This document shows, piece after piece, positions 13,775 through 55,770 of a DNA stretch of 64,000 bases. Each line of letters opens with the position of its first letter. The first letter of the stretch is position 1. The notes below the pieces were generated by a model that was not told where the DNA came from, did no database searches, and was given only the letters and a program-made list of their open reading frames with translations. Location: the IMG/VR virus record IMGVR_UViG_2831870349_000001. The stretch is one strand, 5' to 3'. The position numbers and the translations under genes were made by a program. The DNA is from a virus (Duplodnaviria > Caudoviricetes).

Positions 13775-14783
13775 GCCTCACGAAGGCTCCGAATGCGGAA
13801 AGCATTCGCCGCATTAAGATTCCGGCGTTTTCGGTTCGGGAAATAACATTTCCTTCCACGTCCGGACTGCCGCCATCTCTATTTTCGCGGCTTTCGAGCG
13901 GCAATGTGATTCGGGTCTTGTAATCCGTCGCGCCCCCACGAATCTCAACCCCCGCTTCGTCAAAACCGACCACCGAGATATGTGAATTACCTTGGGCTGT
14001 CGCCGCGCTCAACTGGTTGATTGCCTCCTCACGATTCAGACCTTCGGTGTTTTCGTGAGACAAAGCCGTCCTGTCCGATCCTATTGCTTCTTTCTTCTCC
14101 CGGACATCGTCAAAGAACGGATCATTGTCGTTTTCATCATTTGTGTCCACCAGTTCAATTCGAACGGAAACGAGCCGGGACATCTGCTGAATGTAGGCCC
14201 TGAAGTCATCTTCACTTGAGAGAGAGATAATTTCCAGGGTGAATCGGCCATACGTTCGGCGCGTAGCGCTCTTGGCCGCGTTGATTGCGGTCTTGGTAGG
14301 ATTCTTTCTAGATTGTACCTCAGCGGCAGCTTCGGCTATCCGATCATCAACATACTGCTTGTAATACCGTCGAATGTTTCGGGTTACGACGTTCTTGAAG
14401 GATCCAAGAGGAGGCGCCTCGGGGGTCTCATGGTAGTAGAGAAGCTTATGGTTCCTTAATATCAGGACAAAGGAAGCGGAGGTCGCATAAGGAGTTTCAC
14501 TAAGGCTTTCCACCAATCCAAGCTCAGGGTCAAAGACTTGTACGCTCCGATGCCTCGTGTCTTGGATAAAAGTGCCGACCAAACACAGTTCATCGCGGCC
14601 GTCAAAGGGCAACATCTCTAATCGGGTTTCATAGAGAAAATATGTGCTCGACATGAACTCATATTTTTCAGGATGCGAAAGTAGGGCTGGCAGGACGACA
14701 TCGTTAGCGAGATCAAGAAGATTGGTGTCTTCGCCAAACTTACAAATGAAATTTGCGAATTCTACGTAAGGTTCCCATGCCAT
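13677..14783 (-). CDS. DUF4747-like soluble protein, candidate defence partner
   Basis: 368 aa with SFVLILRNHKLLY motif; paired with a TM gene in a low-GC moron next to the integrase. Confidence 0.55.
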   Translation of the reverse strand: MAWEPYVEFANFICKFGEDTNLLDLANDVVLPALLSHPEKYEFMSSTYFLYETRLEMLPFDGRDELCLVGTFIQDTRHRSVQVFDPELGLVESLSETPYATSASFVLILRNHKLLYYHETPEAPPLGSFKNVVTRNIRRYYKQYVDDRIAEAAAEVQSRKNPTKTAINAAKSATRRTYGRFTLEIISLSSEDDFRAYIQQMSRLVSVRIELVDTNDENDNDPFFDDVREKKEAIGSDRTALSHENTEGLNREEAINQLSAATAQGNSHISVVGFDEAGVEIRGGATDYKTRITLPLESRENRDGGSPDVEGNVISRTENAGILMRRMLSAFGAFVRRGVHIDETPEADAQIIESKIAAVQEQFNIGAG

Positions 14784-40762: not shown

Positions 40763-40791
40763 TAGACAGATACGAACAGGCGTGTGATAAT
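40763..40791 (+). promoter_or_regulatory. Putative late promoter with SOS-box-like spacer
   Basis: TAGACA-17nt-GATAAT; contains CGAACAGGCGTGTG. Confidence 0.5.
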
Positions 40792-41061: not shown

Positions 41062-41140
41062 CCTTGGGTAGCTCAGCCTGGTAGAGCGCACGGCCTTGAA
41101 AACCGTGAGGTCGGGGGTTCAAATCCTTCCCCTCGGACCA
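41062..41140 (+). tRNA. Atypical tRNA with 9-nt anticodon loop (Phe-GAA-like or TGA)
   Basis: TAGCTCAG..TGGTAGAGC D arm, CACGG/CCGTG stem with loop CCTTGAAAA, GGTTCAAATCC T arm, CCA end; two acceptor-stem mismatches. Confidence 0.7.
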
Positions 41141-41212: not shown

Positions 41213-41289
41213 GCCTGCGTAGCTCAATATAGTAGAGCGCCCGATTTGTCATCGGGAAGATGGTTGCTCACAGCGGCCCGCGGGCCCCA
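41213..41289 (+). tRNA. Atypical tRNA-Thr(TGT)-like gene
   Basis: Acceptor GCCTGCG/CGCGGGC, D stem GCTC/GAGC, anticodon stem CCCGA/TCGGG with loop TTTGTCA, CCA end; non-canonical T loop CTCACAG and no D-loop GG. Confidence 0.65.
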
Positions 41290-42684: not shown

Positions 42685-42747
42685 GCTCCGTGGGCGCTCC
42701 TGACGCCTGCGGAGTAAACATTTCAGGAGACGCCTCAGGAGGGCGTC
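42685..42747 (+). ncRNA. Candidate kissing-loop cis-regulatory RNA, copy A
   Basis: 12-bp hairpin with loop CTCCTGA, complementary to loop TCAGGAG of a second hairpin that holds the RBS. Confidence 0.65.
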
Positions 42748-42751
42748 AAAT

Positions 42752-43303
42752 ATGCCAAGTTATCCTGGAGACGACGGATCTCTCATTCTACATTTCGGTT
42801 CTGGCGATATTGCGATCTGTCCTAGCAAAGGTCTTGACCGCGAATGTGAAGACGAAATCGCATTCATAGTCCATGAGCCGGGAGAAGTCGGACGCTATTA
42901 CGGTGAATGGAAAGGAAAGTCCACGTCAGAACTCAACACGCCGGTTCGGATGATCTTCGATACCGTTGACGCGCTGGATGTTGTGGTCGAACAGCTGACG
43001 ACACTGCGTTTCAAGATGACTGGAGATGAGCAGCCAACGTGCCAAGTACAGGCAGGTTTCGCCTGGACGGACATGGCGGCGAGCGCATACCGCGCCTACG
43101 CTGCATCAACCGGCAACAAGAACTTTCGCGGTGAGCCTATGCCAGCGTTTGATGACCTGCCAGTCGCCATTCAAACAGCGTGGGAGGCGGCTGTTCGGCA
43201 TGTCGGCAACGCGATTGAGAACCCCCGTGCTTTGAATTCCACTAAAGAGCAAAGCTGGCAACACTGGGTTCGTCCACAGGATAAGGAAGCAAACCATGTG
43301 TAA
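42752..43303 (+). CDS. Hypothetical two-domain phage protein
   Basis: AGGAGG RBS; C-terminal AYRAYAAST..KNFRG.PMP.FDDLP..IQ.AW motif. Confidence 0.65.
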   Translation: MPSYPGDDGSLILHFGSGDIAICPSKGLDRECEDEIAFIVHEPGEVGRYYGEWKGKSTSELNTPVRMIFDTVDALDVVVEQLTTLRFKMTGDEQPTCQVQAGFAWTDMAASAYRAYAASTGNKNFRGEPMPAFDDLPVAIQTAWEAAVRHVGNAIENPRALNSTKEQSWQHWVRPQDKEANHV

Positions 43304-43577
43304 GTGCACCCCCGGGATCCGGACCCCGTTTTGCGGCAAGCCTGGCTGTACGTGGACCGATGATCCTGAGGAGGTCGATCCTAAATCGCTGGCTGCTGAG
43401 AAAGCCGACTTCCTGCGCGCCGAAATGCAGAAAATCATCACTGTAGCTCGCGACTGCAAAAGCACGGGCCTCCTGTATAACCGCGAGCTTTCGGAAGCTA
43501 TTACCTGTGCGGAGACGGCGTATCTCTGGTTGGAGCAGTTACCCGGCGGGAGTAAGTCGCTAGAGTTTGGCGGCTGA
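43296..43577 (+). CDS. Hypothetical protein
   Basis: CKCTPGIRTPFCG N-terminus; RELSEAITCAETAYLW. Confidence 0.55.
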   Translation: MCKCTPGIRTPFCGKPGCTWTDDPEEVDPKSLAAEKADFLRAEMQKIITVARDCKSTGLLYNRELSEAITCAETAYLWLEQLPGGSKSLEFGG

Positions 43578-43615
43578 GACGTTCACCCTCATCAGAATCT
43601 ACCCCCATATAGCAC

Positions 43616-44275
43616 ATGCTAGCCACCAAACGACAAATCGAGCGCGCGATGCTGTCGCGGCCGCTTCCGCCATCTCGCCTGTCGGACGAAGGGCGGATGG
43701 TGACGCGGTTCGAACCGGCCGAGGACCTTGCCGAGTGGGTCATGCGCGCGATCATCGACGAGGATGGGCCGCTCGCCAATCCCGCACACCAGCATCTGCG
43801 GACGGCGTCGATCGGGTTCCTCTGGACGAATGCGCCGAACTTTCGCGGCGGCCATGCGGTCGCCGGCATGACCGAGAAGCCGATCTGCCAGGGCAATCGC
43901 TGGCAAAAGGCGCGCCACGATCTTCAGCTGTCCGCATGGTTTCCCCGAAATCTCGATTTCCTGATCACCTTGGATGCTGTGTTCGCCGCCGAGAACCCCG
44001 ACGTCAATTTTTGCGCGCTGGTCGAGCACGAACTTTACCATATTGCTCACGCCAAAGATCAATTCCGGATTAAGAAATTCAGCAAATCGACCGGCAAACC
44101 GATCCTGGCGCTCCGAGGCCATGATGTCGAGGAGTTTGTCGGTGTCGCCGAGCGGTACGGCGCCGGGGCGTGCGCCGGCGCGACGGCGGAGCTGGTGCGC
44201 GTCTCGAACCTGCCGCCGCTGATCGGTGAGGCGTCGATTCGGGCCGCGTGCGGCAATTGTCTGCGAATGGTTTAG
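43616..44275 (+). CDS. Putative phage metallopeptidase
   Basis: LVEHELYH...GHDVEEFVGV.ERYG; upstream of terminase. Confidence 0.8.
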   Translation: MLATKRQIERAMLSRPLPPSRLSDEGRMVTRFEPAEDLAEWVMRAIIDEDGPLANPAHQHLRTASIGFLWTNAPNFRGGHAVAGMTEKPICQGNRWQKARHDLQLSAWFPRNLDFLITLDAVFAAENPDVNFCALVEHELYHIAHAKDQFRIKKFSKSTGKPILALRGHDVEEFVGVAERYGAGACAGATAELVRVSNLPPLIGEASIRAACGNCLRMV

Positions 44276-44282
44276 GTGTGCG

Positions 44283-44927
44283 ATGGGACGACCTAGGAAA
44301 GATGCGGCGAAGCCGCCGGTGGCGGCCAAGGGGGGTGTGGCGAAAGCCGACTCGCCGAAGGTGTCGGCTTCCACCGTGCCAGGTCCCAAAACGCTGCCAT
44401 CAGATATCGTTACTTATATCATCGACCGGTTGGCGCAGTACGCTGGGCCAACAGAGATACGCTCCGAGATTATGGATTTGTTCGGACGGGATGTGCCGAA
44501 GGCGACGATCAATCGCTACAACCCTAACACGGTGCAGGGCGAAAAGGAAATGGCGGAAGCGCTGAAGGCTTTGTTTTTCGAGCGACGAGCTCGGTACCTG
44601 GACCGCCTTGACGACATCCCGATCGCGAATCCCGCTGTGCGGCTCCAAAAGATCCAGTCAGTTGTCGATCGCTGCGAAATCAACGGGAACGACGTCCTTC
44701 TCCTCCAGGCGGCAAAGCAGGCGGCGGAAGAGCGCGGCGGCGCTTATACGAACCGGCGCGAACTGACAGGCAAGGATGGCGGCGCGATCGCTCTCAAGAA
44801 CGAACCGCCGGTGGAGCTCTCAAAGCTCAGCGAGGAGAGGTTCAAATTGCTTGAAAGCATCTATGCCGAAGCCGGCTCTGGAGATCTGGACACCGGCACA
44901 AATCCGAGCGGAGCGACGTCGGCGTGA
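44283..44927 (+). CDS. terS: Terminase small subunit (DUF2280-like)
   Basis: IPIAN..VRL, QAAEERGGAYTNRRELTGKDGG; overlaps terL. Confidence 0.75.
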   Translation: MGRPRKDAAKPPVAAKGGVAKADSPKVSASTVPGPKTLPSDIVTYIIDRLAQYAGPTEIRSEIMDLFGRDVPKATINRYNPNTVQGEKEMAEALKALFFERRARYLDRLDDIPIANPAVRLQKIQSVVDRCEINGNDVLLLQAAKQAAEERGGAYTNRRELTGKDGGAIALKNEPPVELSKLSEERFKLLESIYAEAGSGDLDTGTNPSGATSA

Positions 44928-46437
44928 TATAGCCGCATGCCGCGCGCATCTGCGTGACTTTGTTCAGCATTCATGGCACATCATTGAGCCGGGAATGCCG
45001 CTGATCAACAACTGGCATGTGGACTGTATCTGTGATCATCTGGAGGCGGTGACTTTAGGTCACATCCGTGACCTGCTCATTAATATCCCACCCGGGCATA
45101 TGAAGTCGCTCCTAGTTAGTGTCTTCTGGCCGGCATGGGAATGGATCCAAAATCCGCGCGAACGCTCTCTATTCTCGTCCTACGCCGTGGATCTTGCAAT
45201 CCGTGATAGCGTTCGTTGCCGAGACCTGATCACTTCCGACTGGTACCAGGAGTGGTTCGAGCCGGACTGGAAAATGAAGGGCGACCAGAACGTTAAGTCC
45301 TGGTTTCAGAACGATAAGACCGGTTTTCGGTTTTCGATGTCCGTCGGCGGCCGCGCTACTGGTTTTCGCGGAAACAAGATCGTGGTCGACGACCCTTTGA
45401 ACGCCAAGGAAATGCATTCGAAGGCGACCCGCGACGAGTGCATCTTCTGGTGGGACAAAGTGATGCCCACGCGGATCAATGATCCGCGTGGCGGCAAGCG
45501 CGTCGTGATCATGCAGCGTTTGCATGAAGAAGATCTGTCCGGACATATACTTGCGAAGGGCGGCTTCGAGCATCTTTGCCTGCCGTCGGAATTTGAGCCG
45601 GAGCGCCGTTCGCGTACATTCATCTTCTCCAAGGATAATGATCTTAATGATGGCGAAGACGAAATGCGCACTGAATTCTGGTCAGATCCGCGGACTGAGC
45701 ATGGGGATCTCTTGTTCCCGGAGATGTTCACGAAGCAAGTACTCAGTCAGCTGAAAAAGGATCTGGGCGAAACGGATTTTGCCGGGCAGCATCAGCAGTC
45801 GCCGCGACCCGCCGCCGGCATCATCTTCAAAAGCCATTGGTGGCGCTACTGGGTTCCCAAAGGTCTGCTCGGCAAACTCCCGCCGATTACCATTGTCCTG
45901 GAGGACGGCTCATTCTTTGACAGCCCCGTCATCGAGATCCCTGAGGGATTTGAAACACTCCTCCAGTCCTGGGATATGTCGTTCAAAGACAGCAAGGGCG
46001 CGGACTTCGTCGCCGGGCAGGTCTGGGCTCAGGTCAAAGCCGATTGCTTCCTGCTCGATCAAGTTTGTGAACGCATGGATTTCACGGCCACGATCGCGGC
46101 CGTTCGCGCGATGACGGAGAAGTGGCCGCTGGCGCTCGCGAAACTCGTTGAGGATAAGGCAAACGGACCTGCGGTAATTTCCTCGCTGAAAAAAGAGATC
46201 CCGGGGCTCATCCCTATCGAACCCGAAGGTGATAAAGTCTCCCGCGCTCATGCCGTCACTCCGATGTGCGAGTCCGGAAATGTGTATCTTCCGCACCCTG
46301 CGCTTTATCCATGGATCAAGGTAACCCTCGACCGGCTGACAGCATTCCCAAACGCCGCCAAAGACGACGATGTAGACGCACTCACGCAGGCGCTCCGGCG
46401 CATGAGCAAAAAGAAACGCGTTTTCAAGTTGATGTAG
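44863..46437 (+). CDS. terL: Terminase large subunit
   Basis: NIPPGHMKS, VDDP, IMQRLHEEDL, SWD, VEDKANG, DDDVDALTQA. Confidence 0.95.
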   Translation: MPKPALEIWTPAQIRAERRRRDIAACRAHLRDFVQHSWHIIEPGMPLINNWHVDCICDHLEAVTLGHIRDLLINIPPGHMKSLLVSVFWPAWEWIQNPRERSLFSSYAVDLAIRDSVRCRDLITSDWYQEWFEPDWKMKGDQNVKSWFQNDKTGFRFSMSVGGRATGFRGNKIVVDDPLNAKEMHSKATRDECIFWWDKVMPTRINDPRGGKRVVIMQRLHEEDLSGHILAKGGFEHLCLPSEFEPERRSRTFIFSKDNDLNDGEDEMRTEFWSDPRTEHGDLLFPEMFTKQVLSQLKKDLGETDFAGQHQQSPRPAAGIIFKSHWWRYWVPKGLLGKLPPITIVLEDGSFFDSPVIEIPEGFETLLQSWDMSFKDSKGADFVAGQVWAQVKADCFLLDQVCERMDFTATIAAVRAMTEKWPLALAKLVEDKANGPAVISSLKKEIPGLIPIEPEGDKVSRAHAVTPMCESGNVYLPHPALYPWIKVTLDRLTAFPNAAKDDDVDALTQALRRMSKKKRVFKLM

Positions 46438-46455
46438 ACCTGGACAAGTACACCT

Positions 46456-46584
46456 ATGACGCCATTCAAATTGTTCGAATATGCGACGGCTGTCGCCGGC
46501 GGCGTCGCCGAACTGGGCGTCGTCCTGATCGTGCTCGCGCTGGGCTCTCTGGCCGCGATCGCGTACTTCAAGAAGCCGGAATAA
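46456..46584 (+). CDS. 42-aa single-TM protein
   Basis: Hand translation MTPFKLFEYATAVAGGVAELGVVLIVLALGSLAAIAYFKKPE. Confidence 0.5.
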   Translation: MTPFKLFEYATAVAGGVAELGVVLIVLALGSLAAIAYFKKPE

Positions 46585-46593
46585 CAATCCCTT

Positions 46594-47952
46594 ATGGCAG
46601 TCTTCAAGGCCGGAAAACTAAATACCGGGAAGCTGCCGGGCCTCCGCCAGCAGATCCGTCGGGGTTTGAACGCGGTCCTGTCCATTAAGGATGGCGGCGT
46701 GACGGCCGAAGGCGACGCCGGATGGAGTGTGCTCTCCGGGCGCAATCATCAGTATTACCGGGGCAGCGTCCGCAACTGGCAAAACGAGGCGGGACCGCTC
46801 TGGGAAAACCCGGCGATCTCGATCGGAATCCAATATATCTTCAACAAGGTCGCGGAGCCGCGCCTTCAAGTCGTCTCGGATCCCGACGGAACGCCCACGC
46901 CGATCCCCGGGCACGCACTGATTCAGCTGCTTCGCAGGCCCAACGGCGAATACAGCTGGCGCGCGATGCTCCAGGCCTGCGCTGCGTCCTATAAGCTGGA
47001 CGGAAACGCCTATATCGTCAAGGTGCGCGGGTCCGGTGGGTACGGGTCCGTTCAGCAGCTCTGGTATATCGCGCACTGGCAGATGGAGCCTCTGGCGCCG
47101 CTCGGGAACGGGCCGACCGAGTTCTACAAGCGCACGCTCCCAAATGGTAAGACGGAAGTCTATGCGCGCGCCAACGTCATCCACTTCAAGAACGGTCTCG
47201 ATCTGGAGAACAACCGGAAGGGCTACGCCCCCTTCCGCGCTGAGTTCCGCGAAGTCGTCTCCGACAACGAGATCGCGACGTTCACCGCGTCGATCCTGAA
47301 AAACCTCGGCGTCGCGATCATGATCTCCCCCGTCGGCGACGACGCCGAGATGGACACGGATACGGTCGACGAGCTGAAAGACAAGGTCCGGGTAGGTATT
47401 TCGGCGGACAACCGGGGCGGCCTGGTCATGCCCTCGATTCCCGTACGCGCCGATCGCATAGGATCCACCCCGCAGGAAATGGCGCTCGACACCATCGGGG
47501 ACCGTCCGGAGTCGCGGATCTTCGCCACGCTCGGCATCGAGCCGATGGCGGTCGGACTTCCCTCCGGCAACACGAAGTACGCGAACAAAAAAGAGGCGCG
47601 CGAGGCGTCCTACGAAAACGGCATCATCCCGATGCTTTCCGTGTTCGGGGAGACACTCACGGATGAATTGCTGCCCGATTTTCACGCCGGGCAAAAGAGT
47701 GCGCCGGACGAGGTCGTCGCGTTCAACTACGACAAAGTCCGTGACCTTCAGCCGGACCTCGACGCCAAGCACAAACGCTTCTGGGGCGACTTCAAGAACG
47801 GTATCGGCAAACTGAGCGAAGCGCGCGCCGGTCTTGGTTACGAGAAGGACGAGCAGATTGACGGATATTATTTCGAGTTGATGCCGGCAAAAACCGCAAC
47901 GCCCGACGGATCCCAGGGCGTCAGCGACGATCCTGACGCCGCCGACAAGTAG
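46594..47952 (+). CDS. HK97-family portal protein
   Basis: LLRRPN, GNAYI, VIHFK, EARAGLGY; follows terL. Confidence 0.9.
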   Translation: MAVFKAGKLNTGKLPGLRQQIRRGLNAVLSIKDGGVTAEGDAGWSVLSGRNHQYYRGSVRNWQNEAGPLWENPAISIGIQYIFNKVAEPRLQVVSDPDGTPTPIPGHALIQLLRRPNGEYSWRAMLQACAASYKLDGNAYIVKVRGSGGYGSVQQLWYIAHWQMEPLAPLGNGPTEFYKRTLPNGKTEVYARANVIHFKNGLDLENNRKGYAPFRAEFREVVSDNEIATFTASILKNLGVAIMISPVGDDAEMDTDTVDELKDKVRVGISADNRGGLVMPSIPVRADRIGSTPQEMALDTIGDRPESRIFATLGIEPMAVGLPSGNTKYANKKEAREASYENGIIPMLSVFGETLTDELLPDFHAGQKSAPDEVVAFNYDKVRDLQPDLDAKHKRFWGDFKNGIGKLSEARAGLGYEKDEQIDGYYFELMPAKTATPDGSQGVSDDPDAADK

Positions 47953-48049
47953 ATCTATCGTAAGAGTAGATCTGCCGAGAGAATAGATCTGTCGTAAGAA
48001 TAGATCTGTCGTAAGAATAGATCTGTCGTAAGAATAGATCTGTCGTGAG
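47948..48049. repeat. Six tandem 17-bp units (consensus AATAGATCTGTCGTAAG)
   Basis: Read directly; every unit contains AGATCT. Confidence 0.92.
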
Positions 48050-48097
48050 ATCGGAACTCTTTGATTCTCACGACATTCCCCCGACGAAAGCCTTCCC

Positions 48098-49537
48098 ATG
48101 AGTGACATCACAGTCGTGAATAATCTCACGCGCGTTGACAAATTCTTCAATCTGAAGGCTGCCAACACGTCCATCGAAGACAACTATATCGATTCCGTGC
48201 CTTCGGTCATGGGCGTGATGGATGAAGGCGCGGATGTGATCTTCCCGGGCGCGTTCACGAAGAGCGGGGCGCTGGAAAGCTTCCTGAAGCGTGGATTCGT
48301 CCCTACCGACCACAAATGGGAGTGGACGGAGATCGTCGCGATGCCGATTTCCGCGAAGGAGGACGGCAACAAGCTCGTCAGCCGCGCGGTCTTCCACACC
48401 ACGCAGAAGGCGCAGGACGCCCGCACGATCTGCATGGAGCGCCTGGCGCAGGGACTTTGGATCGGCGAGTCCGTCGGCTTTGGCATGTACGCCGGCGATT
48501 ACAAATGGTTTGCCTCCGGACAGGCGCTGCTGACCTGGGCTGAGGCGAATGGATACGACCTGTCCCTTTTTGATGCGGATGGGATCAAGTCCTGGAAGAC
48601 GACGTGCCGGGGCATCATCAATATCCCCGAGCTTTATGAATATAGCATTGTCCCGGTCGGCATGAACCGCTGGGCGGAGGCGGTCGACGTGAAATCAGAC
48701 AATCAAAAATCCGGACAGATCACCCTTGCCGCCTTGCCGGCCTTGCTCAAGGAGCTCTCCGACGCCGGCGCGCCGATCACGCTGCCTGACGGAACCGTGC
48801 TCGTCCCGAAATCGGCGCCGGCGCCGGGCGGAGCGCGCGAACTGGTGGCGATCGCCAAAGACGGCAAGGTGACGCTGAAGGGCGAGTACCTGGGCGATAT
48901 CGAGATCGATATGACGCTGAGCGCCGCCTACGATCTGTGCTACACGATGTACTACATCGTCGCCGCGCAGCTGCGCGGCAACTGGTCCTGGGACGATGTC
49001 GCCGGAGACTATGTCCGCGTGCGCCCTCCGCTCGCCGATGCGCTGGTCGCCATTGAAGGCGCCGCAGGTGAGTTCACGGACGTACTGCTCCGTGTGATCG
49101 AAGCCATTATGTCCGGCGTCGAAGGCGCGCAGGACGCCGAAGAAGTCGAGGTCGAACTCGAAGCGATGGCGGGCGGCCCCGACGTCAAACAATTGTCCGA
49201 TTCCCTGCATGCCGGGGAATCGTTTCAAAAACAGCTGGGAACGGTGCGTGCTGCCGTGAAGAGCTGCTCCGATCGCGCGAAGGCGATCCATCTCATCCGC
49301 GTCAAGGAAGGGCGGGCGCTGTCGGAAACCAACCGGCAGAAGCTCACCTCGCACCGCGACGCGCTGGCGGACTGCGTCAAGGCGATCGACGATCTGCTGG
49401 AGGAGACAAAGAACAACGCGGAAGAGGCGACTGAAAAGTCACTTGAAGTAAGTGAAAAGCTTGCTCCGGCCGCGTCCGTTCTCAAGGCTCGGCGTGATTT
49501 CCTGATCCAGGAGCTGGCGGGAGTCCTCGGCGAGTAA
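48098..49537 (+). CDS. HK97-type prohead protease with long C-terminal extension
   Basis: DVIFPGAF, DH, SVGF, LYEYSIVPVGMN; later KEGRALSETN. Confidence 0.85.
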   Translation: MSDITVVNNLTRVDKFFNLKAANTSIEDNYIDSVPSVMGVMDEGADVIFPGAFTKSGALESFLKRGFVPTDHKWEWTEIVAMPISAKEDGNKLVSRAVFHTTQKAQDARTICMERLAQGLWIGESVGFGMYAGDYKWFASGQALLTWAEANGYDLSLFDADGIKSWKTTCRGIINIPELYEYSIVPVGMNRWAEAVDVKSDNQKSGQITLAALPALLKELSDAGAPITLPDGTVLVPKSAPAPGGARELVAIAKDGKVTLKGEYLGDIEIDMTLSAAYDLCYTMYYIVAAQLRGNWSWDDVAGDYVRVRPPLADALVAIEGAAGEFTDVLLRVIEAIMSGVEGAQDAEEVEVELEAMAGGPDVKQLSDSLHAGESFQKQLGTVRAAVKSCSDRAKAIHLIRVKEGRALSETNRQKLTSHRDALADCVKAIDDLLEETKNNAEEATEKSLEVSEKLAPAASVLKARRDFLIQELAGVLGE

Positions 49538-49638
49538 AGTCTCGGCAGAAAAATTCACAAAACCAGCGAACCATTCTTGATATGGTCCGCAGCACTCACA
49601 TTTCCCGATAGACAGCACAAAATAGCAGCCTTTGACCG

Positions 49639-49680
49639 AAGGAGCCCGGCGCGGATAGCGCGCCTGGGCTCCTTTTGTTT
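49639..49680 (+). terminator. Rho-independent terminator-like hairpin
   Basis: AAGGAGCCCGGCGCG...CGCGCCTGGGCTCCTTTTGTTT. Confidence 0.55.
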
Positions 49681-49749
49681 TGGGCTGCTTTTTCATGTGC
49701 CTGTCTTCGCATTTCCCGGCGGCGCTCACGGCGCCGCGAGACACAATCC

Positions 49750-51147
49750 ATGAAAACACTGCAAGAGAAGATGGCGGCGCGCGAGCTGCTGGTCAAGCAG
49801 GTCAAAGACCTGTTCGCGAAGGCTGAGCAGACCACCGAGGACCTGGACGCTATCGAAAAAGCCAACGACGAGATCAAGGCGCTGGACGCCGAGATCGTCC
49901 GCTTGAAGAGCATTGAAGATATCCGCAAGGCGAACGCCGAGCGGGAAGCCGAGATCGCGACTCTGGGCCAGCGCCCGGAACTTGGCAACAGCGCGCCGAC
50001 CTTCGCGGAAAAGACCGGCATCGTCCCCGTGGAGTTTAAACTCTCCCGCCCTGAGAACTTCCTCAAGATCACGAACGATCTGGAGAAGGCGCAGACCAAG
50101 GCGTATCGCATGGGCCACTTCCTGCTGGCGACCCTTGGCAACAACGCCAAGTCCCAGGCGTGGTGCGCGAAGAACGGGATCGAGCTTCGCTCCCAGAGCG
50201 AGACCGATAACGCCGCCGGCGGCTTCCTGGTGCCGGCTGAGTTCGACAACGATTTGATCGTCCTCCGCGAAATCTACGGCGTCTTCCGCAAGTATGCGAA
50301 GAAGTCGACCATGCGCAGCGACACCAAGATGGTTCCGCGCCGCACCGGCGGCCTGAAGGCGTACTGGGTCACCGACGGGCAAGGAATCACCGAGAGCCAA
50401 AAAGGCTGGGACATGGTGACCTTGATCGCGAAGAAGCTCGCGTGCCTTGCGCTCTATTCGAGCGAGCTGAACGAAGACGCGATCATCGACATTACGAACG
50501 ACCTGGCCGGCGAGATCGCGTACGCGTTCGCGCTGACCGAGGACTTCGCGGGCTTCGTCGGCGACGCCACGAGCGCTTACGGCGGCATCACGGGCGTCAC
50601 GAATAAGTTCCTGGGTCTCAGCGCAACCGTCGCCAATATCGCCGGCCTCTATGTGGCGAGCGGCGCCGGCTACGCGAATAACTGGGACAGCATCACGCTG
50701 AAGGACTTTGGCAAGCTGAAGGGTCTCTGCCCGCAGTACGCGCTCCAGAAGGACGCGGCCTGGTACTGCTCCCAGGCGTTCTACTCGGACGTCATGGAAG
50801 CACTGATGCTCGCCGCCGGCGGCGTCACCGCGATGGAAGTGGCGATGGGCCGCAAGGAGCTGACGTTCATGGGCTATCCCGTGCGCATCAGCCAGGCGAT
50901 GCCCCAGTCCTCGGCGCAGAACCAGATCCCGGTCTTCTTCGGAGACCTGAGCCTGGCCGCGCTGTTTGGCGATCGCCGCGAGACCACGATCGCCACGTCG
51001 AGCGAGTACCGCTTCGCGAACGACCAGCTTGCCATCAAGGGCACTGAGCGCGTCGATATCATCGTGCATGACATCGGCAACGCGGACGCCGTCGCGGCCA
51101 ACCGCAAGGTCGGCCCGCTCGTCGCGATGATCACGCCGAACGCGTAA
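49750..51147 (+). CDS. HK97-fold major capsid protein with N-terminal delta domain
   Basis: Coiled-coil N-terminus, GGFLVP, SSELNED, MGYPV, FGDLS, RVD. Confidence 0.93.
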   Translation: MKTLQEKMAARELLVKQVKDLFAKAEQTTEDLDAIEKANDEIKALDAEIVRLKSIEDIRKANAEREAEIATLGQRPELGNSAPTFAEKTGIVPVEFKLSRPENFLKITNDLEKAQTKAYRMGHFLLATLGNNAKSQAWCAKNGIELRSQSETDNAAGGFLVPAEFDNDLIVLREIYGVFRKYAKKSTMRSDTKMVPRRTGGLKAYWVTDGQGITESQKGWDMVTLIAKKLACLALYSSELNEDAIIDITNDLAGEIAYAFALTEDFAGFVGDATSAYGGITGVTNKFLGLSATVANIAGLYVASGAGYANNWDSITLKDFGKLKGLCPQYALQKDAAWYCSQAFYSDVMEALMLAAGGVTAMEVAMGRKELTFMGYPVRISQAMPQSSAQNQIPVFFGDLSLAALFGDRRETTIATSSEYRFANDQLAIKGTERVDIIVHDIGNADAVAANRKVGPLVAMITPNA

Positions 51148-51289
51148 TCATCGGCCCCGTCCTCGTCCTAAACAGACCTCGCCTTTGACCAAAATCCTCC
51201 GCTCCATCCGCCCACGCGCACCGCCCACGGCGGTGCGCGTGGGCGGCGGGGCGGATTATCTACGGCGCGCCTGCTGGCGCCGGGAGAGA

Positions 51290-51745
51290 ATGAATATGAT
51301 CGGTACTCACAACTTTAAGAAGGTCGTCGCAATCGCGCCGGCGTCCTTCACCAACGGCGCGACCGCGTCGGGGATCATCGATACCGCCGGTTTCGACGCG
51401 ATGACGCTGGATCTAATCACGTCGCCGGCCAATAACGCCACCAACTCGCCGACGGTCCTCAAGCTCCAGGAAGCGGATGTGACCAACGCCACATCGTTCA
51501 CCGACATTCCCCAGTTTGTCGGCGGCGGCGCGGGCGGCTTCGCCATCCCGAATGAGAAGACCGTGGCTAGCACCGCCCCGTTTGCCTCGTTCAACGTGGA
51601 CCTTCGGAGTCGCAAGCGCTATATCCAGGTCGTGGACGTTCCGCAGACCACGCAGATCGTCAGCGCGATCGCGCAGCTCGGCCGCGCGGAGCAGACGCCC
51701 GTCGGCGCGGCGTCGCAGAACGTTGCTGTCGTTGTTACTGGCTAA
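51290..51745 (+). CDS. Capsid-associated (decoration-like) protein
   Basis: IDTAGFD...LQEAD...KRYIQV; directly after the capsid gene. Confidence 0.65.
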   Translation: MNMIGTHNFKKVVAIAPASFTNGATASGIIDTAGFDAMTLDLITSPANNATNSPTVLKLQEADVTNATSFTDIPQFVGGGAGGFAIPNEKTVASTAPFASFNVDLRSRKRYIQVVDVPQTTQIVSAIAQLGRAEQTPVGAASQNVAVVVTG

Positions 51746-51765
51746 CTGGTCTGCTGAAATCAAAT

Positions 51766-51796
51766 GCAGGCTAAGACCAATACAGTCTTAGCCTGC
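51766..51796 (+). terminator. Hairpin GCAGGCTAAGAC...GTCTTAGCCTGC
   Basis: 12-bp perfect IR after the capsid genes. Confidence 0.55.
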
Positions 51797-51842
51797 GCTT
51801 AAAAGCGCATTCATTTTCCAGGTTCCTCGGGAGGGAGCAATT

Positions 51843-52178
51843 ATGGACGATCAAACTACAACGGCCTCTAAAGAGCCAAAAGATTTTAACAGCGATGGTC
51901 CCGTTCAAGAAAACATCACAACTCAGGCAGTCGCAAAGCGAGCCTTAGAAGTGATGAAGTGGGCAGGATGTGCATGCGGATGGTATGACCACACCGCTGA
52001 GGGCGGTCCAACAGTCGAAAAAATGGAGAGCGATCTCCTATTTCTAGAAGCCGTGGCTGATGGTGACGACGAAAAGACCATTCACAAAAAAATAGTTGCC
52101 CTGCGCGCTAAGCAATTAGGAGATGACTTTAAAGTCCTTCTTTATAAAGCTGAGTTGCCGACAAGTTATGACAGATAG
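51843..52178 (+). CDS. Hypothetical moron protein
   Basis: Lower GC; GGAGG RBS. Confidence 0.55.
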   Translation: MDDQTTTASKEPKDFNSDGPVQENITTQAVAKRALEVMKWAGCACGWYDHTAEGGPTVEKMESDLLFLEAVADGDDEKTIHKKIVALRAKQLGDDFKVLLYKAELPTSYDR

Positions 52179-52213
52179 GCGAAAGCCAAAAAATAGGCTT
52201 CGGCCAAACCATA

Positions 52214-52277
52214 GCCCTGCGAGCGCTCCCGACGCTCGCAGGGTGAAATTGTATCGGGGGCGTCTCGGGAGGGCGTC
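52214..52277 (+). ncRNA. Candidate kissing-loop cis-regulatory RNA, copy B
   Basis: 12-bp hairpin with loop CTCCCGA, complementary to loop TCGGGAG; covaries with copy A. Confidence 0.65.
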
Positions 52278-52282
52278 AGCAG

Positions 52283-53029
52283 ATGGCATTAACAGAGCAA
52301 GAAGTCGCGGAGATCAATTCTCTGCTCGCTGAGTCGGGCAAGAGAGCCGCGCGCAAGATTTTCCTGGAAGTGGAAGCGAAGAGACTCCTCGAGGAATCGA
52401 TGGCGGCCAACGAAGAACTAAACAATCTGCGTTTTGACTATTGTCCCGCACAGCAGCGGATTAATGAAATTCTTCGCGACGCTTCAATTCGTGAATCTGC
52501 GTGCCCAGGCGAAGTTCCGGGGCGTGTTGTAGAAAACGCCATCGCATGTGGGGACGACAACCAGGCGCTTGCTGAAGACGAACGCCCGCTGAATCGCTAT
52601 GCAGTGGATTATGAGTTTGGGGCAGCAAAGTTCTACACACGATCTATCGACATAGACGAAGCGCGGCTCGAATTTTATGACTGCGCCAACGAATGCTTCG
52701 GTATTCGTAAGTCGATTGGAGACGTAAAAATCAACCTTGAGGCGGAGAACGTCCACCTGCCTGTCCAGGATGCGAAACAGATCTCCTATTTCACTCACGC
52801 ACTTCTATACGGCCAAACTTCAGGTATCGGAGACGAAGTCATTTTCGACCGGCGTTATAAGACGGCAAGCGGTGAGGGGTGGAAACTTCAAAACGAGAGC
52901 GGAGAGCGTTGCACCTGCGCGACGCGTGGCAGCGCCGAACTTGCCTGCGAAGTGCATCACTTCTGGGTTGAAAATCATAACCACGTCTGCCCATGCACCA
53001 ATCCGTCGTGGGAGGCGCCGCACAAATGA
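52283..53029 (+). CDS. Hypothetical moron protein
   Basis: 248-aa ORF with Cys/His-rich C-terminus. Confidence 0.6.
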   Translation: MALTEQEVAEINSLLAESGKRAARKIFLEVEAKRLLEESMAANEELNNLRFDYCPAQQRINEILRDASIRESACPGEVPGRVVENAIACGDDNQALAEDERPLNRYAVDYEFGAAKFYTRSIDIDEARLEFYDCANECFGIRKSIGDVKINLEAENVHLPVQDAKQISYFTHALLYGQTSGIGDEVIFDRRYKTASGEGWKLQNESGERCTCATRGSAELACEVHHFWVENHNHVCPCTNPSWEAPHK

Positions 53030-54543
53030 ATCCTCAAAACCTCCTTTTGAATCTAGGCTCTGGGGATCTTCCACTTCGCGGCCACATCAATATCGACCGC
53101 AAATACGAAAAGGATGTCCTTCACGTGGACGAAGACACCATTCTCTGGCGCGGCGAAGTCTACCCACTGGCTTTCGATGATGAAAGCGTCTGCGGCGTGC
53201 GCGCCTCACACGTGTTGGAGCATTTCAGCCATCGCGAGACGATGGCGGTCCTGGCCGACTGGGTTCGCGTCTTGAAGCCGGGCGGGCTTCTCTGTGTCGC
53301 CGTCCCGAACTTCGAATGGATCGCAAGGCGCTACCTCGAATCCCTCACCAATTCCGCCGCCGCCGCGCTTCCGCTGGAAGGGTATCTGATGGGCGGGCAT
53401 GTGGATGATAATGATCACCACGGCGCCATTTTTGATGAGCAGAGCCTGCGCGCGGCAATGGAGCATCTGGGACTGGTCAACATCTACACATGGGATTCCG
53501 AAGTCGCGGACTGCGCCTCGCTTCCCGTTTCGCTGAACCTGGTGGGGATGAAACCTCTTCCGGCGGATTATTCATCGATCAATAATCCTGCTCCTGGACG
53601 AATAGAGAACCCACACGGGTTTGCTGTGGGCGATCAAGTTTGGGACAATTCCGGCGACTGTGGAAACGGCTTTGGCGATGTCTTGGAGATCTACGAAAAG
53701 CACCCCAATTGCGTCAAAGTGTATTGGGAGAATGAAGGCAATCTTTGTGTGGTCCATTGCTCAATTCTAGATCATGTCGCTGATGTTAAGACAGTTCCAC
53801 AGGACAGCGTGAAAGCATCATCAGGTCCGGATTTGCGCTTTGCCTCCATCGTCATCAAGCCCGGCGACGTCGCGGCCGTGGCTACCGTACCGCGCCTTGG
53901 CTTCACGGACACGCAGTTCTGCATTATCCGCGCCGTCTGCGCCCATCCGATCAGCTTCGAGCAGAGCGGCGGCGTATTCTGGGACCAGGGGATGACACGC
54001 GTCTTCGAAAGCCATATGGACGACGGGACGAAGTATCTCCTGGCGATCGATTATGATTCGCTTTTCACCGCTGAGGATGTGCGGACGCTGTATGGCGTCA
54101 TGGAAGCGCGGCCCGACATTGACGCGCTTTGCCCGGTCCAGATCCGGCGCGAGAACGATCATTCGCTCTTTACCGTGGAAGGCGACGACGGCAAGAGCGC
54201 AACCGAGATCGATTATTCACGTTTCGAGACGGACGTTCTGAAGATCCGAACCGGCCATTTTGGCCTGACGATGATCCGCGTGGACGCGCTGCGCCGCCTG
54301 CCGCGTCCCTGGTTCCATGCCCGGCCCGACGACGCCGGCCGCTGGGGCGACGGGCGCGTGGACAGCGACGTCGCCTTCTGGCTCCAGTGGGCCGAGGCGG
54401 GCAACTCGCTGTACCTGGCGAACCGTGTCCCGATCGGTCACCTCCAGCTCATGGCAACCTGGCCGAGTGAGGAACTTGGTTTGAAGACTCAGTATGTCAG
54501 TGACTGGCTGAAGACAGGGAAGCCGGCGGGCGCGTGGCAATGA
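53026..54543 (+). CDS. Class I SAM methyltransferase - GT-A glycosyltransferase fusion
   Basis: LNLGSG, NID, SHVLEH, RVLKPGG; C-terminal IDYD (DxD), GHFGLTMIR, DSDVAFW, IGH. Confidence 0.8.
   Translation: MNPQNLLLNLGSGDLPLRGHINIDRKYEKDVLHVDEDTILWRGEVYPLAFDDESVCGVRASHVLEHFSHRETMAVLADWVRVLKPGGLLCVAVPNFEWIARRYLESLTNSAAAALPLEGYLMGGHVDDNDHHGAIFDEQSLRAAMEHLGLVNIYTWDSEVADCASLPVSLNLVGMKPLPADYSSINNPAPGRIENPHGFAVGDQVWDNSGDCGNGFGDVLEIYEKHPNCVKVYWENEGNLCVVHCSILDHVADVKTVPQDSVKASSGPDLRFASIVIKPGDVAAVATVPRLGFTDTQFCIIRAVCAHPISFEQSGGVFWDQGMTRVFESHMDDGTKYLLAIDYDSLFTAEDVRTLYGVMEARPDIDALCPVQIRRENDHSLFTVEGDDGKSATEIDYSRFETDVLKIRTGHFGLTMIRVDALRRLPRPWFHARPDDAGRWGDGRVDSDVAFWLQWAEAGNSLYLANRVPIGHLQLMATWPSEELGLKTQYVSDWLKTGKPAGAWQ
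53567..53586. promoter_or_regulatory. Dispersed palindrome copy 5 (ATTATTCATCGATCAATAAT), in the MTase-GT linker
   Basis: Identical to copy 2; encodes DYSSINN. Confidence 0.75.
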
Positions 54544-54935
54544 AAATCCCTCACAATCACGCACGGGCACTTCAAAAGTATCGGTGGGAAACGATCCCGC
54601 TTCAGATCGTGAAGATTGATCAGAACGCTCACGATGCATTGATGCCGTTCCTACTTTCGGAAAGGGACGTTCGCGAGCATCCGGATTGGCCGCAGTGGTT
54701 TCCCTACAAGCTCGCCGAGCCGCACCAGCGCCAGGCGATGGTAAACCATGGGCAGACGCTCCGGCGTCTTGCCGAGCGCGGCGGCCTCGGCCACCGAGAA
54801 CTTTACCATATTCTGCGCGACGAGCGGTTCCGCCATACCGGCCACCCTGGCGCCGTCTCCGACGAAGTCGCCGCGCTTTATCTGCAAGAACTGATTGAGG
54901 GCTATGAGCCCTCAATCGAAGGACATCAGCCATGA
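54540..54935 (+). CDS. Hypothetical phage protein
   Basis: PHQRQAMVNHGQTLRRLAERGGL motif. Confidence 0.65.
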   Translation: MKIPHNHARALQKYRWETIPLQIVKIDQNAHDALMPFLLSERDVREHPDWPQWFPYKLAEPHQRQAMVNHGQTLRRLAERGGLGHRELYHILRDERFRHTGHPGAVSDEVAALYLQELIEGYEPSIEGHQP

Positions 54936-55117
54936 TCATCAAACTGAACGAAAAATGGGACGGGAAGAACCGGGGCGATGTGGTGGAAGTCGGCGCCGGC
55001 GTCGGGCAGCTTCTGGTCGGACGCGGCGCGGCGGAGGAACTGCCTGCGCCGGCCGGCAAGTCCGTGAAGGCGCCGCCCGTCGACAAGATGGTGCGCGGGC
55101 CTCAGGAAACAAAGTAA
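54932..55117 (+). CDS. Small head-region protein
   Basis: GDVVEV...PPVDKMVRGP..K, typical of small genes after the capsid. Confidence 0.65.
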   Translation: MIIKLNEKWDGKNRGDVVEVGAGVGQLLVGRGAAEELPAPAGKSVKAPPVDKMVRGPQETK

Positions 55118-55149
55118 AAGCGGCGAAAAGCCATAGAGGAGACGAAATA

Positions 55150-55770
55150 ATGGACACCGGGTACCCCGACGCCTCCGACTTCCGCAAGTTCCTGCTGGGC
55201 GCAGGGCAGCGTATTCCCGATGATCTGGATGTGGAAACGAAGATCTTCTCGGCCATCACGGAGTGGGAGGACGGGACCGGTTTCGCGCCGTTCCTCGCGG
55301 ACGACACCACGGTCGGCTCGCGCTCCTTTGATCCGCCCAGGACCTCGCGCGATCTGGACCTTGGCGCCGGTCTCGTGGAGCTAACCTCGCTGACCGTCGC
55401 GGGAACGCCGTTTGTTCTGGGGCGAGATTTCTACGCGTATCCGCAGAACGCGCTCGCGAAGGGTAAGCCGATCACGTACCTGCGTTTTTACTCGCGGCCC
55501 GGGTCGTCGATCATGCAATCGATCGTTGTGACGGGCAAATGGGGCTTCACGACGGCGCTGCGCGCGAACGTACGCAATGCGATCCTGTGTAAGGCGGCGC
55601 TGCTATCGGCGCCGGAACTCGAATTCTCCATTACGAACGGTGTGGCCGTGGCGGAAGACATCAAATTCGCAAGCGGTAATTTCAAGCCCATCGGCACTCT
55701 AATCGAAGAATGGAGACGGATCTTCAAAGAGACGCTTCATGGTGGCGGCTACCGACGCATTAGTGTCTAG
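55150..55770 (+). CDS. Head-tail connector/adaptor protein
   Basis: RSFD...DL...VVTGKWGF...VRNAIL; position in operon. Confidence 0.75.
   Translation: MDTGYPDASDFRKFLLGAGQRIPDDLDVETKIFSAITEWEDGTGFAPFLADDTTVGSRSFDPPRTSRDLDLGAGLVELTSLTVAGTPFVLGRDFYAYPQNALAKGKPITYLRFYSRPGSSIMQSIVVTGKWGFTTALRANVRNAILCKAALLSAPELEFSITNGVAVAEDIKFASGNFKPIGTLIEEWRRIFKETLHGGGYRRISV

Follow-up and report, generated by a model that had tools for sequence, protein, structure and literature searches.

Hairpin leaders with complementary loops at the ribosome-binding sites of prophage genes: a candidate translational switch

Two leaders in the late region of a prophage

The DNA analysed here (the window) is a stretch of 64,000 nt, IMG/VR record IMGVR_UViG_2831870349_000001, and coordinates refer to it throughout. 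In a genome of 7,645,051 bp that consists of one contig (G000), it corresponds to the minus strand of positions 6,388,727–6,452,726. The 42–58 kb portion of the window is the late region of a prophage, the host of which is most likely an Armatimonadota bacterium. Two genes of this region are each preceded by the same element of about 65 nt, which lies in the sense transcript immediately 5′ of the start codon. Copy A (42685–42747) stands before a gene of 183 amino acids (aa) at 42752–43303 (+ strand), and copy B (52214–52277) before a 248-aa gene at 52283–53029 (+). A preliminary description, made from the letters of the window, had interpreted the two copies as RNA leaders whose kissing loops cover the ribosome-binding site and control translation. 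All of its statements on the sequence of the two copies were reproduced.

Both copies contain the same parts in the same order, from 5′ to 3′: a first hairpin (H1) with loop L1, an AU-rich spacer of 6–9 nt, a pseudo-Shine-Dalgarno sequence in the linker (pSD), a second hairpin (H2) with loop L2, and the ATG. In copy A, H1 (42685–42715, +) is made of a 5′ arm (42685–42696), the loop L1 CUCCUGA (42697–42703) and a 3′ arm (42704–42715); its stem is 12 bp long including three G-U pairs, and T42684 and A42716 can extend it to 13 bp. The pSD of this copy, UCAGGAG (42723–42729, +), is complementary to L1 at 7/7 positions. It is followed by H2 (42729–42747, +), with a 6-bp stem (GACGCC, 42729–42734, and GGCGTC, 42742–42747) and the loop L2 UCAGGAG (42735–42741), and the start codon is at 42752. 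In copy B, H1 (52214–52244, +) again has a 12-bp stem, formed by a 5′ arm (52214–52225) and a 3′ arm (52233–52244) around the loop L1 CUCCCGA (52226–52232). The pSD UCGGGGG (52254–52260, +) pairs with L1 at 7/7 positions, one of them G-U, and overlaps the 5′ arm of H2 by 2 nt. H2 (52259–52277, +) consists of GGCGTC (52259–52264), the loop L2 UCGGGAG (52265–52271) and a second GGCGTC (52272–52277), giving 6 bp of which two are G-U, and the ATG is at 52283. The distance from H2 to the ATG is 4–5 nt in the two copies. In both, the last bases of L2 join with the base that opens the H2 3′ arm to give GGAGG, 9–10 nt before the ATG. L1 is an anti-Shine-Dalgarno sequence, CUCCYGA, facing UCRGGAG in L2 and UCRGG(RR) in the pSD.

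The preliminary description had claimed that the two 7-nt loops are exact complements in each copy, with a compensatory change from T-A to C-G between the copies, and that each linker holds an alternative partner (TCAGGAG in A, TCGGGGG in B, the pSD). Both points were confirmed. No start codon follows the pSD in A or B, which means that it does not serve a leader peptide as ribosome site. The likeness of A and B is confined to the element itself; their flanks are not shared.

Folding of the sense strand gave z-scores of −3.13 for A and −3.02 for B, with weaker values for the antisense strand (−2.45 and −1.76, respectively). The G-U pairs, three in H1 of A and two in H2 of B, would become A-C mismatches on the opposite strand, and the neighbouring genes are all on the + strand. 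The strand-specific G-U pairs, the weaker antisense folds and the orientation of the neighbours indicate that the structure is an RNA structure of the sense transcript.

Over both strands of the whole genome (7,645,051 bp), a structural descriptor matched A and B only. A covariance model built from A and B scored 96.8 and 91.1 bits on the two copies themselves, whereas no other genomic site exceeded 21.8 bits. When the genome was scanned for tandem hairpins with fully complementary 7-nt loops, 51 pairs were found on the two strands together, most of them from one palindromic repeat family; a first stem of at least 12 bp was present only in A, B and one unrelated pair. Copies A and B are more than chance products. 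No Rfam 15 family was matched at the gathering score, nor at E values up to 10 when the 600-nt stretches around each copy were searched, and so the Rfam check proposed with the preliminary description leaves the element outside the families described there.

Two features elsewhere on the chromosome, outside the window, were recorded along the way. The unrelated tandem pair lies at about 4,521,226 (reverse-strand index) and has stems of 12 and 14 bp with the loops ACGCAAC and GTTGCGT. The chromosome also carries, throughout its length and in about 20 copies per strand, a palindromic REP/MITE-like repeat made of two 17-nt hairpin units (loops CGTGCCG and CGGCACG) that are about 30 nt apart and are mutual reverse complements.

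Family members and covariation

Seven members of the family were found in all: A, B, G023, G011a, L040, L287 and L273. Of the five beyond A and B, two come from related prophages (G023 and G011, with the element at the position of B) and three from IMG/VR contigs. A search of 101 related genomes with the model R1 gave the full element in G023 (52.7 bits) and another, in G011, among the weaker matches. R1 treats the variable loop positions as independent, so that G023 and G011a were found without complementarity being demanded. A pattern scan of IMG/VR with N at both variable loop positions gave four matches, one of which, L040, was real, while L287 and L273 came from IMG/VR scans that required complementary base triplets (L1/pSD/L2). 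The L040 contig (14,396 bp) carries the H1 region at both ends (1–27 and 14253–14279), and is probably circular or terminally redundant and cut inside the leader.

In an alignment of five sequences, 94% of cells pair and 10 of the 24 pairs change on both sides, with slid controls at 42–48%; none of 500 column shuffles reached the observed values of pairing or covariation. The changes on both sides include eight of the ten inner H1 pairs. For all seven members, pairs were counted from a loop-anchored table, since a MAFFT alignment of the seven misaligns L273 and L287 and was not used. In this table, each of the first seven positions of H1 shows two to four standard pair types: the H1 stems differ at nearly all positions among the members while pairing is kept. 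In H2, the inner four pairs are nearly constant and the outer pairs vary. The preliminary interpretation is thus supported in so far as the element is a conserved, strand-specific RNA structure with compensatory changes.

L1 is invariant in the seven members except for its fifth base, which is a pyrimidine (Y). Because L1 stays constant while the H1 stem varies, it is the loop sequence itself that is under selection, and not the hairpin alone. The variable base changes together with a purine (R) in each of the two partners: the Y/R/R triplet of L1, pSD and L2 is U/A/A in A and L040, and C/G/G in B, G023, G011a, L287 and L273. L1 and L2 are complementary at 7/7 positions in all seven members; for L1 and the pSD the complementarity is 7/7 in five members and 6/7 in two. 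It is thereby established that the structure exists and is conserved, and that L1 is complementary to both of its partners and covaries with them.

The association of complementary triplets with a real H1 stem was seen in two scans. The first, an unbiased check across 401 genomes of the phylum, used a pattern open to each of the eight Y/R/R combinations and returned 25 matches, compared with 17 for a reversed control pattern; the triplets were complementary in 4/4 matches with an H1 stem of at least 11 bp and in 4/21 with a stem of at most 2 bp. In IMG/VR, the complementary triplets gave 98 matches, seven of which (five distinct sequences) had a stem of at least 6 bp, whereas in the 43 matches to non-complementary triplets the stem never exceeded 2 bp (Fisher p 0.07 against the complementary set). 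Two candidates with first stems of 6–7 bp but lacking H2, one a single sequence occurring at L213, L226 and L246 and the other L232, were excluded from the counts as possible chance matches. IMG/VR scans for the A/U and G/C versions of the triplet gave at least 173 matches and, among the matches listed, no convincing member. Their absence from real elements would fit a need for a purine at this position to extend the pairing with 16S rRNA.

Wider searches added no further member. The N-pattern scan of a species-genome collection gave 68 loci, among which the real ones were only the G011 and G023 elements already known, and the same scan of metagenomes gave 71 loci without a member, the H1 stem never exceeding 4 bp; one of these loci, L134, lies inside a coding sequence. 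A search of 151 genomes of the phylum with the model R2 returned only three weak matches, none of them convincing. Two of the three, L183 and L184, are without an anti-Shine-Dalgarno hairpin. The third, L182, is doubtful: its loops are complementary at 8/8 positions, but it follows an ECF-sigma-like gene, has no adjacent start codon and lies in a non-phage context. Its two hairpins (1501–1576 of the locus, G172:C28:43444-43519, in another genome of the phylum) have the loops UCUCCUGA and UCAGGAGA and are placed downstream of the ECF-sigma-like open reading frame (ORF), about 100 nt before a 227-aa membrane-protein-like ORF; they could be a distant relative or a coincidence. Applied without filters to 10 loci from prophages that are more distant but share a related capsid gene, R2 found no member, and a weak match in one of these prophages (L193) proved to be a plain terminator and ribosome site. 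A blastn comparison of the 2-kb stretches around each copy with 50,697 phage records gave no match, and a search of IMG/VR by way of the capsid protein found no relative. The element family is rare.

Genomic context and hairpins of related form

The late genes recognised around the two copies, all on the + strand, are those of the large terminase (44776–46437), the portal (46594–47952), a protease-like protein (48098–49537), the major capsid protein (49675–51147), a phrog_5707 protein (51185–51745) and a head-tail adaptor-like protein (54895–55770). The gene after copy A, which has weak PHROG matches only, opens the packaging module and lies ahead of the large terminase gene. The gene after copy B has no family match, and its end is overlapped by 37 nt by a 516-aa ORF (52993–54543, +), which matches SAM-methyltransferases over its first ~165 residues only; the remainder of this ORF belongs to no family. 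Searches of Pfam, PHROGs, NCBIfam, PADLOC and the ESM Atlas gave no match that would indicate the function of the downstream proteins.

Elements B, G023 and G011 stand at the same place, after the genes for the major capsid and phrog_5707 proteins and before the head-tail adaptor-like gene, the G023 version having a 134-aa ORF without family match in place of the phrog_5707 gene. The genes that follow the element differ: the 248-aa gene and the 516-aa protein with its methyltransferase domain in the window, a 122-aa gene in G023, and in G011 a 121-aa gene and further small genes, then an acetyltransferase-like protein. The G+C fraction falls to 0.543 at 52–54 kb, between stretches of 0.61. The post-capsid site of copy B is a hot spot for cargo (‘moron’) genes. 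The preliminary description had called the genes after both copies morons. This is reasonable for the gene after B, given the different genes that follow the same-place elements and the drop in G+C, but is not supported for the gene after A, which heads the packaging module. G011 and G023, which belong to the same family as the host genome, are recorded as uncultured Armatimonadetes/Armatimonadales bacteria, which makes Armatimonadota the most likely phylum of the host.

The remaining members have other surroundings. The L287 element has a divergent gene on one side and, on the other, an operon with a scaffold-like protein among its products; because the upstream gene is divergent, this element is a true 5′ leader and not the terminator of the gene before it. 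The L040 element precedes a 249-aa gene, and its 14-kb contig also carries two integrase genes and one resembling a replication initiator. In a single comparison, this 249-aa protein and the 248-aa protein after copy B were weakly alike (20% identity over 125 aa, E 0.001).

Hairpins with the ribosome site in the loop also occur without H1. A third hairpin of this kind in the window (51822–51838, +; GUUCC, loop UCGGGAG, GGAGC) ends 4 nt before the ATG (51843) of a 111-aa ORF, 400 nt upstream of B. Its loop is the same as that of B, its stem is different, and no anti-Shine-Dalgarno hairpin adjoins it. In the whole genome only three Shine-Dalgarno-loop hairpins precede start codons, namely this one and those of A and B. 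In G011, three consecutive genes each have an H2, with H1 and pSD at the first only; before the third gene, the H1 position is taken by a terminator-like hairpin followed by a U-run. Since H2-type hairpins occur without H1 at 51822–51838 and at two G011 genes, H2 is a module of its own. A pair of hairpins at 51766–51809 (+), between the phrog_5707 gene and the cargo genes, occupies the place that H1 takes in a full element; it consists of a 12-bp stem with the 7-nt loop CAAUACA and a short terminator-like hairpin with a U-rich tail. At H1 of A and B themselves, a terminator scan found no + strand intrinsic terminator (the tails are AAACAUU and GAAAUUG), and no U-run follows H1 in A, B or G011a. 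A scan for sigma-70-type promoters found no site within or just before A or B, and none in the linker.

Some other features of the prophage were observed. Upstream of the packaging module are genes for tRNA-Ser(TGA) and tRNA-Thr(TGT), at 41062–41140 and 41213–41289 (+), with a promoter-like site nearby at 40763–40791. The product of a gene at 43616–44275 (+, 219 aa) carries conflicting labels, matching both Pfam PF18894, ‘putative phage metallopeptidase’ (E 8.5e-29), and, as its best PHROG family, phrog_513, ‘transposase’ (E 9e-64).

A proposed two-state leader and its alternatives

We favour, as a reading with about an even chance of being right, that the element is a cis-acting leader for translational control, in which L1 would pair either with L2, masking the ribosome site, or with the pSD, leaving it free. 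In the masked state, an intramolecular kissing helix of 7 bp between L1 and L2 would cover the ribosome-binding site. In the open state, L1 and the pSD would form a pseudoknot that abuts H2 and leaves the real Shine-Dalgarno sequence exposed. The two states would have similar pairing energies, and the leader would set the translation of the downstream gene, with the balance perhaps shifted by temperature, a protein or the order of folding. The cassette is portable and stands before unrelated genes, both where late or head operons begin and in the post-capsid cargo hot spot.

This two-state leader is favoured because a conserved loop is carried on a freely varying stem, because this loop is complementary both to the Shine-Dalgarno loop and to its copy in the linker, because the three sites covary, because the element adjoins the start codon, and because the energies of the two pairings are similar. 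The calculated duplex energies are −9.8 to −11.3 kcal/mol for L1 with L2 and −7.1 to −10.0 kcal/mol for L1 with the pSD. L1 lies 32–39 nt upstream of the Shine-Dalgarno loop on the same strand, and the pSD overlaps or touches the 5′ arm of H2 in five of the seven members. Beyond the loops, H1 and H2 are no longer complementary, the closing pair being G-C in H1 and C-G in H2 in most members, which favours a loop-loop contact over an extended duplex. We infer that these pairings form in the RNA and alter translation.

The preliminary description had also suggested a riboswitch-like control. In its small-molecule form this is unlikely, because no conserved unpaired pocket remains: the invariant positions all belong to L1, the pSD, L2 or the stem of H2, neither the sequence nor the length of the spacers is constant, and every conserved nucleotide is explained by pairing or by the Shine-Dalgarno sequence.

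Several observations weigh against the two-state leader. The family is small, and only one of the seven loop pairs varies; since B, G023 and G011a are orthologous, the loop covariation may represent only one or two independent events, and the patterns that recovered L287 and L273 demanded complementarity in the first place. The minimum-free-energy folds of B, L040 and L273 favour other pairings. By our estimate, linkers of 11–14 nt between H1 and H2 would be nearly fully stretched in an intramolecular kiss across ~25 stacked bp. H2-type hairpins without a neighbouring H1 are present at 51822–51838 and before two further G011 genes. At those places terminator-like hairpins take the position of H1, and the arrangement could thus be an insulator hairpin and a structured ribosome site, the anti-Shine-Dalgarno loop being an extra. 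Finally, H1 itself is followed by a U-rich run in G023 and L287.

The solitary H2 hairpins are what would be expected if H1 were a small antisense regulator of the type of c4 in phages P1 and P7, made from the same transcript, perhaps excised from it, and acting in cis or in trans on all matching Shine-Dalgarno-loop hairpins and hence on several cargo genes. We consider this unlikely but worth keeping in mind. The hairpin at 51822–51838 and those of the two genes downstream of the G011 element present the same loop without an H1 of their own, and the single compensated loop position by which A and B differ would render their two circuits partly independent, as is also the case between P1 and P7. 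Citron and Schuster reportedly found in 1990 that the related phages P1 and P7 differ by compensated changes in c4. In the account of PMC8198154, c4 is a phage RNA that lies upstream of its targets icd and ant in one operon, and its loops pair with the downstream ribosome-binding region; L1, complementary at 7/7 positions to the Shine-Dalgarno loop, resembles it in this. However, the element matched neither the Rfam C4 model nor any other family at E values up to 10. H1 is a 31-nt hairpin with one loop, whereas c4 is a longer, processed RNA of ~77 nt with two target-complementary segments that belongs to an immunity region; the element lies in late and cargo regions and carries a decoy site. 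A conserved pSD directly after H1 is also left unexplained by an antisense regulator.

The terminator-like hairpins suggest instead that the element could be punctuation between cassettes, H1 serving as a terminator, an attenuator or a hairpin that stabilises the mRNA, with an AU-rich spacer behind it and then a strong ribosome site displayed in a loop; the complementarity of L1 would then be of little weight for translation, or would serve only a compact, nuclease-resistant fold. The same grammar is found with hairpins other than anti-Shine-Dalgarno ones at 51766–51838 and before the third G011 gene, H1 has a U-rich tail in G023 and L287, and the weak model match in the distant prophage is a plain terminator and ribosome site. 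What such a structural hairpin would not need is an invariant L1 on a freely varying stem, covarying with two downstream sites. Moreover, A, B and G011a lack a U-run, neither A nor B has a predicted + strand terminator, and H1 of L287 would terminate nothing, the upstream gene being divergent. We consider the punctuation reading as unlikely as the antisense one.

A third possibility, to which we give slightly less credit again, is a protein operator, in which host CsrA or a phage factor would bind the GGA sites in the pSD and the H2 loop and block the ribosome, with L1 as a competitor. The host genome has one CsrA gene (PF02599, 91.6 bits). As described in PMC7652899, CsrA sites are GGA in hairpin loops, the repeats of CsrB are CAGGA(U/A/C)G, and the SELEX consensus is RUACARGGAUGU; CsrA-controlled leaders and CsrB decoys likewise present GGA in hairpin loops, with one site overlapping the ribosome site and two sites close together. 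The loop UCAGGAG, closed by C-G, is close to these motifs and has its R at the consensus R position, and two sites lie 11–12 nt apart in five of the seven members. The RGGA of the H2 loop and pSD is nevertheless a weakly specific feature: every Shine-Dalgarno sequence contains GGA, and the likeness to any strong one is partly trivial. Very stable stems, such as the G+C-rich stems of H2, appear to be disadvantageous for CsrA in the same source (PMC7652899). CsrA leaders have no conserved complementary loop, protein binding leaves the covariation of L1 with R unexplained, and no gene for an RNA-binding protein was recognised near A or B. A site acting at the DNA level, whether an operator of three 7-mer copies (one inverted) or a folded single strand for cassette exchange like integron attC, is very improbable even though the element lies exactly at the border of conserved structural genes and variable cargo and A and B share it but not their flanks, because the G-U pairs restrict the structure to a single strand and to RNA, a phage with two different 7-mers would require two proteins, no recombinase gene is near the copies within the window, and the downstream gene has the last repeat as its ribosome site.

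Returning to the two-state leader, its parts can be compared with known systems. Fold-back inhibition of the IS10 transposase mRNA and similar cases of ‘protection from outside transcription’, in which only transcripts that read through from upstream carry a sequence able to pair with the gene’s ribosome site, are close in logic, but they use a plain long-range stem and no loop-loop contact, and no internal promoter was detected here in the linker. In ROSE and fourU thermometers, a short leader masks the ribosome site with the Shine-Dalgarno sequence inside a stem that temperature can melt; in our element this sequence is in an exposed loop, would be masked by a tertiary loop-loop helix only, and has an internal competitor. 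The guanidine-II (mini-ykkC) riboswitch is also built of two small G+C-rich hairpins with a variable linker before a start codon, and is described as using kissing loops for purely translational control (PMC5558903, PMC9094411, PMC10351892). It differs in having identical conserved tetraloops (PMC5558903), where the present loops are 7 nt long and complementary and one of them is the Shine-Dalgarno sequence itself, and its kissing is described as requiring guanidinium. Its Rfam model did not match here at the gathering score or at E values up to 10, and it controls guanidine carboxylase and SugE-like genes, whereas the proteins downstream of our element have no Pfam, NCBIfam or PADLOC family. 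By these comparisons, the guanidine-II riboswitch is the closest in architecture and the c4 antisense RNA of P1/P7 the closest in logic, and the element seems to belong to neither of these, nor to the IS10 type. A search of the full-text literature on kissing loops together with Shine-Dalgarno or anti-Shine-Dalgarno sequences found no phage case and no intramolecular anti-Shine-Dalgarno case. Masking of a ribosome site by an anti-Shine-Dalgarno sequence is a familiar principle; its form as a loop-loop contact between adjacent hairpins, with a built-in decoy and moving between unrelated phage genes, looks undescribed.

The small size of the family, together with the absence of a tractable host, limits the value of the finding. 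Tentatively, and as a possibility that we would not yet expect to hold, the element may be a self-contained, portable three-part switch, with which phages of at least one poorly studied phylum, and of some high-G+C hosts, would gate the translation of cargo or late genes in response to a trans factor or temperature, and which would form a new class of cis-regulatory RNA acting through an intramolecular kissing complex on the ribosome site. If the two-state model is true, the leader would be a very small, protein-free and easily re-programmable translational gate, a single base pair separating the A type from the B type. To our knowledge, almost nothing is known of gene regulation in the phages of Armatimonadota, and on the same model the element would provide a first handle on it.

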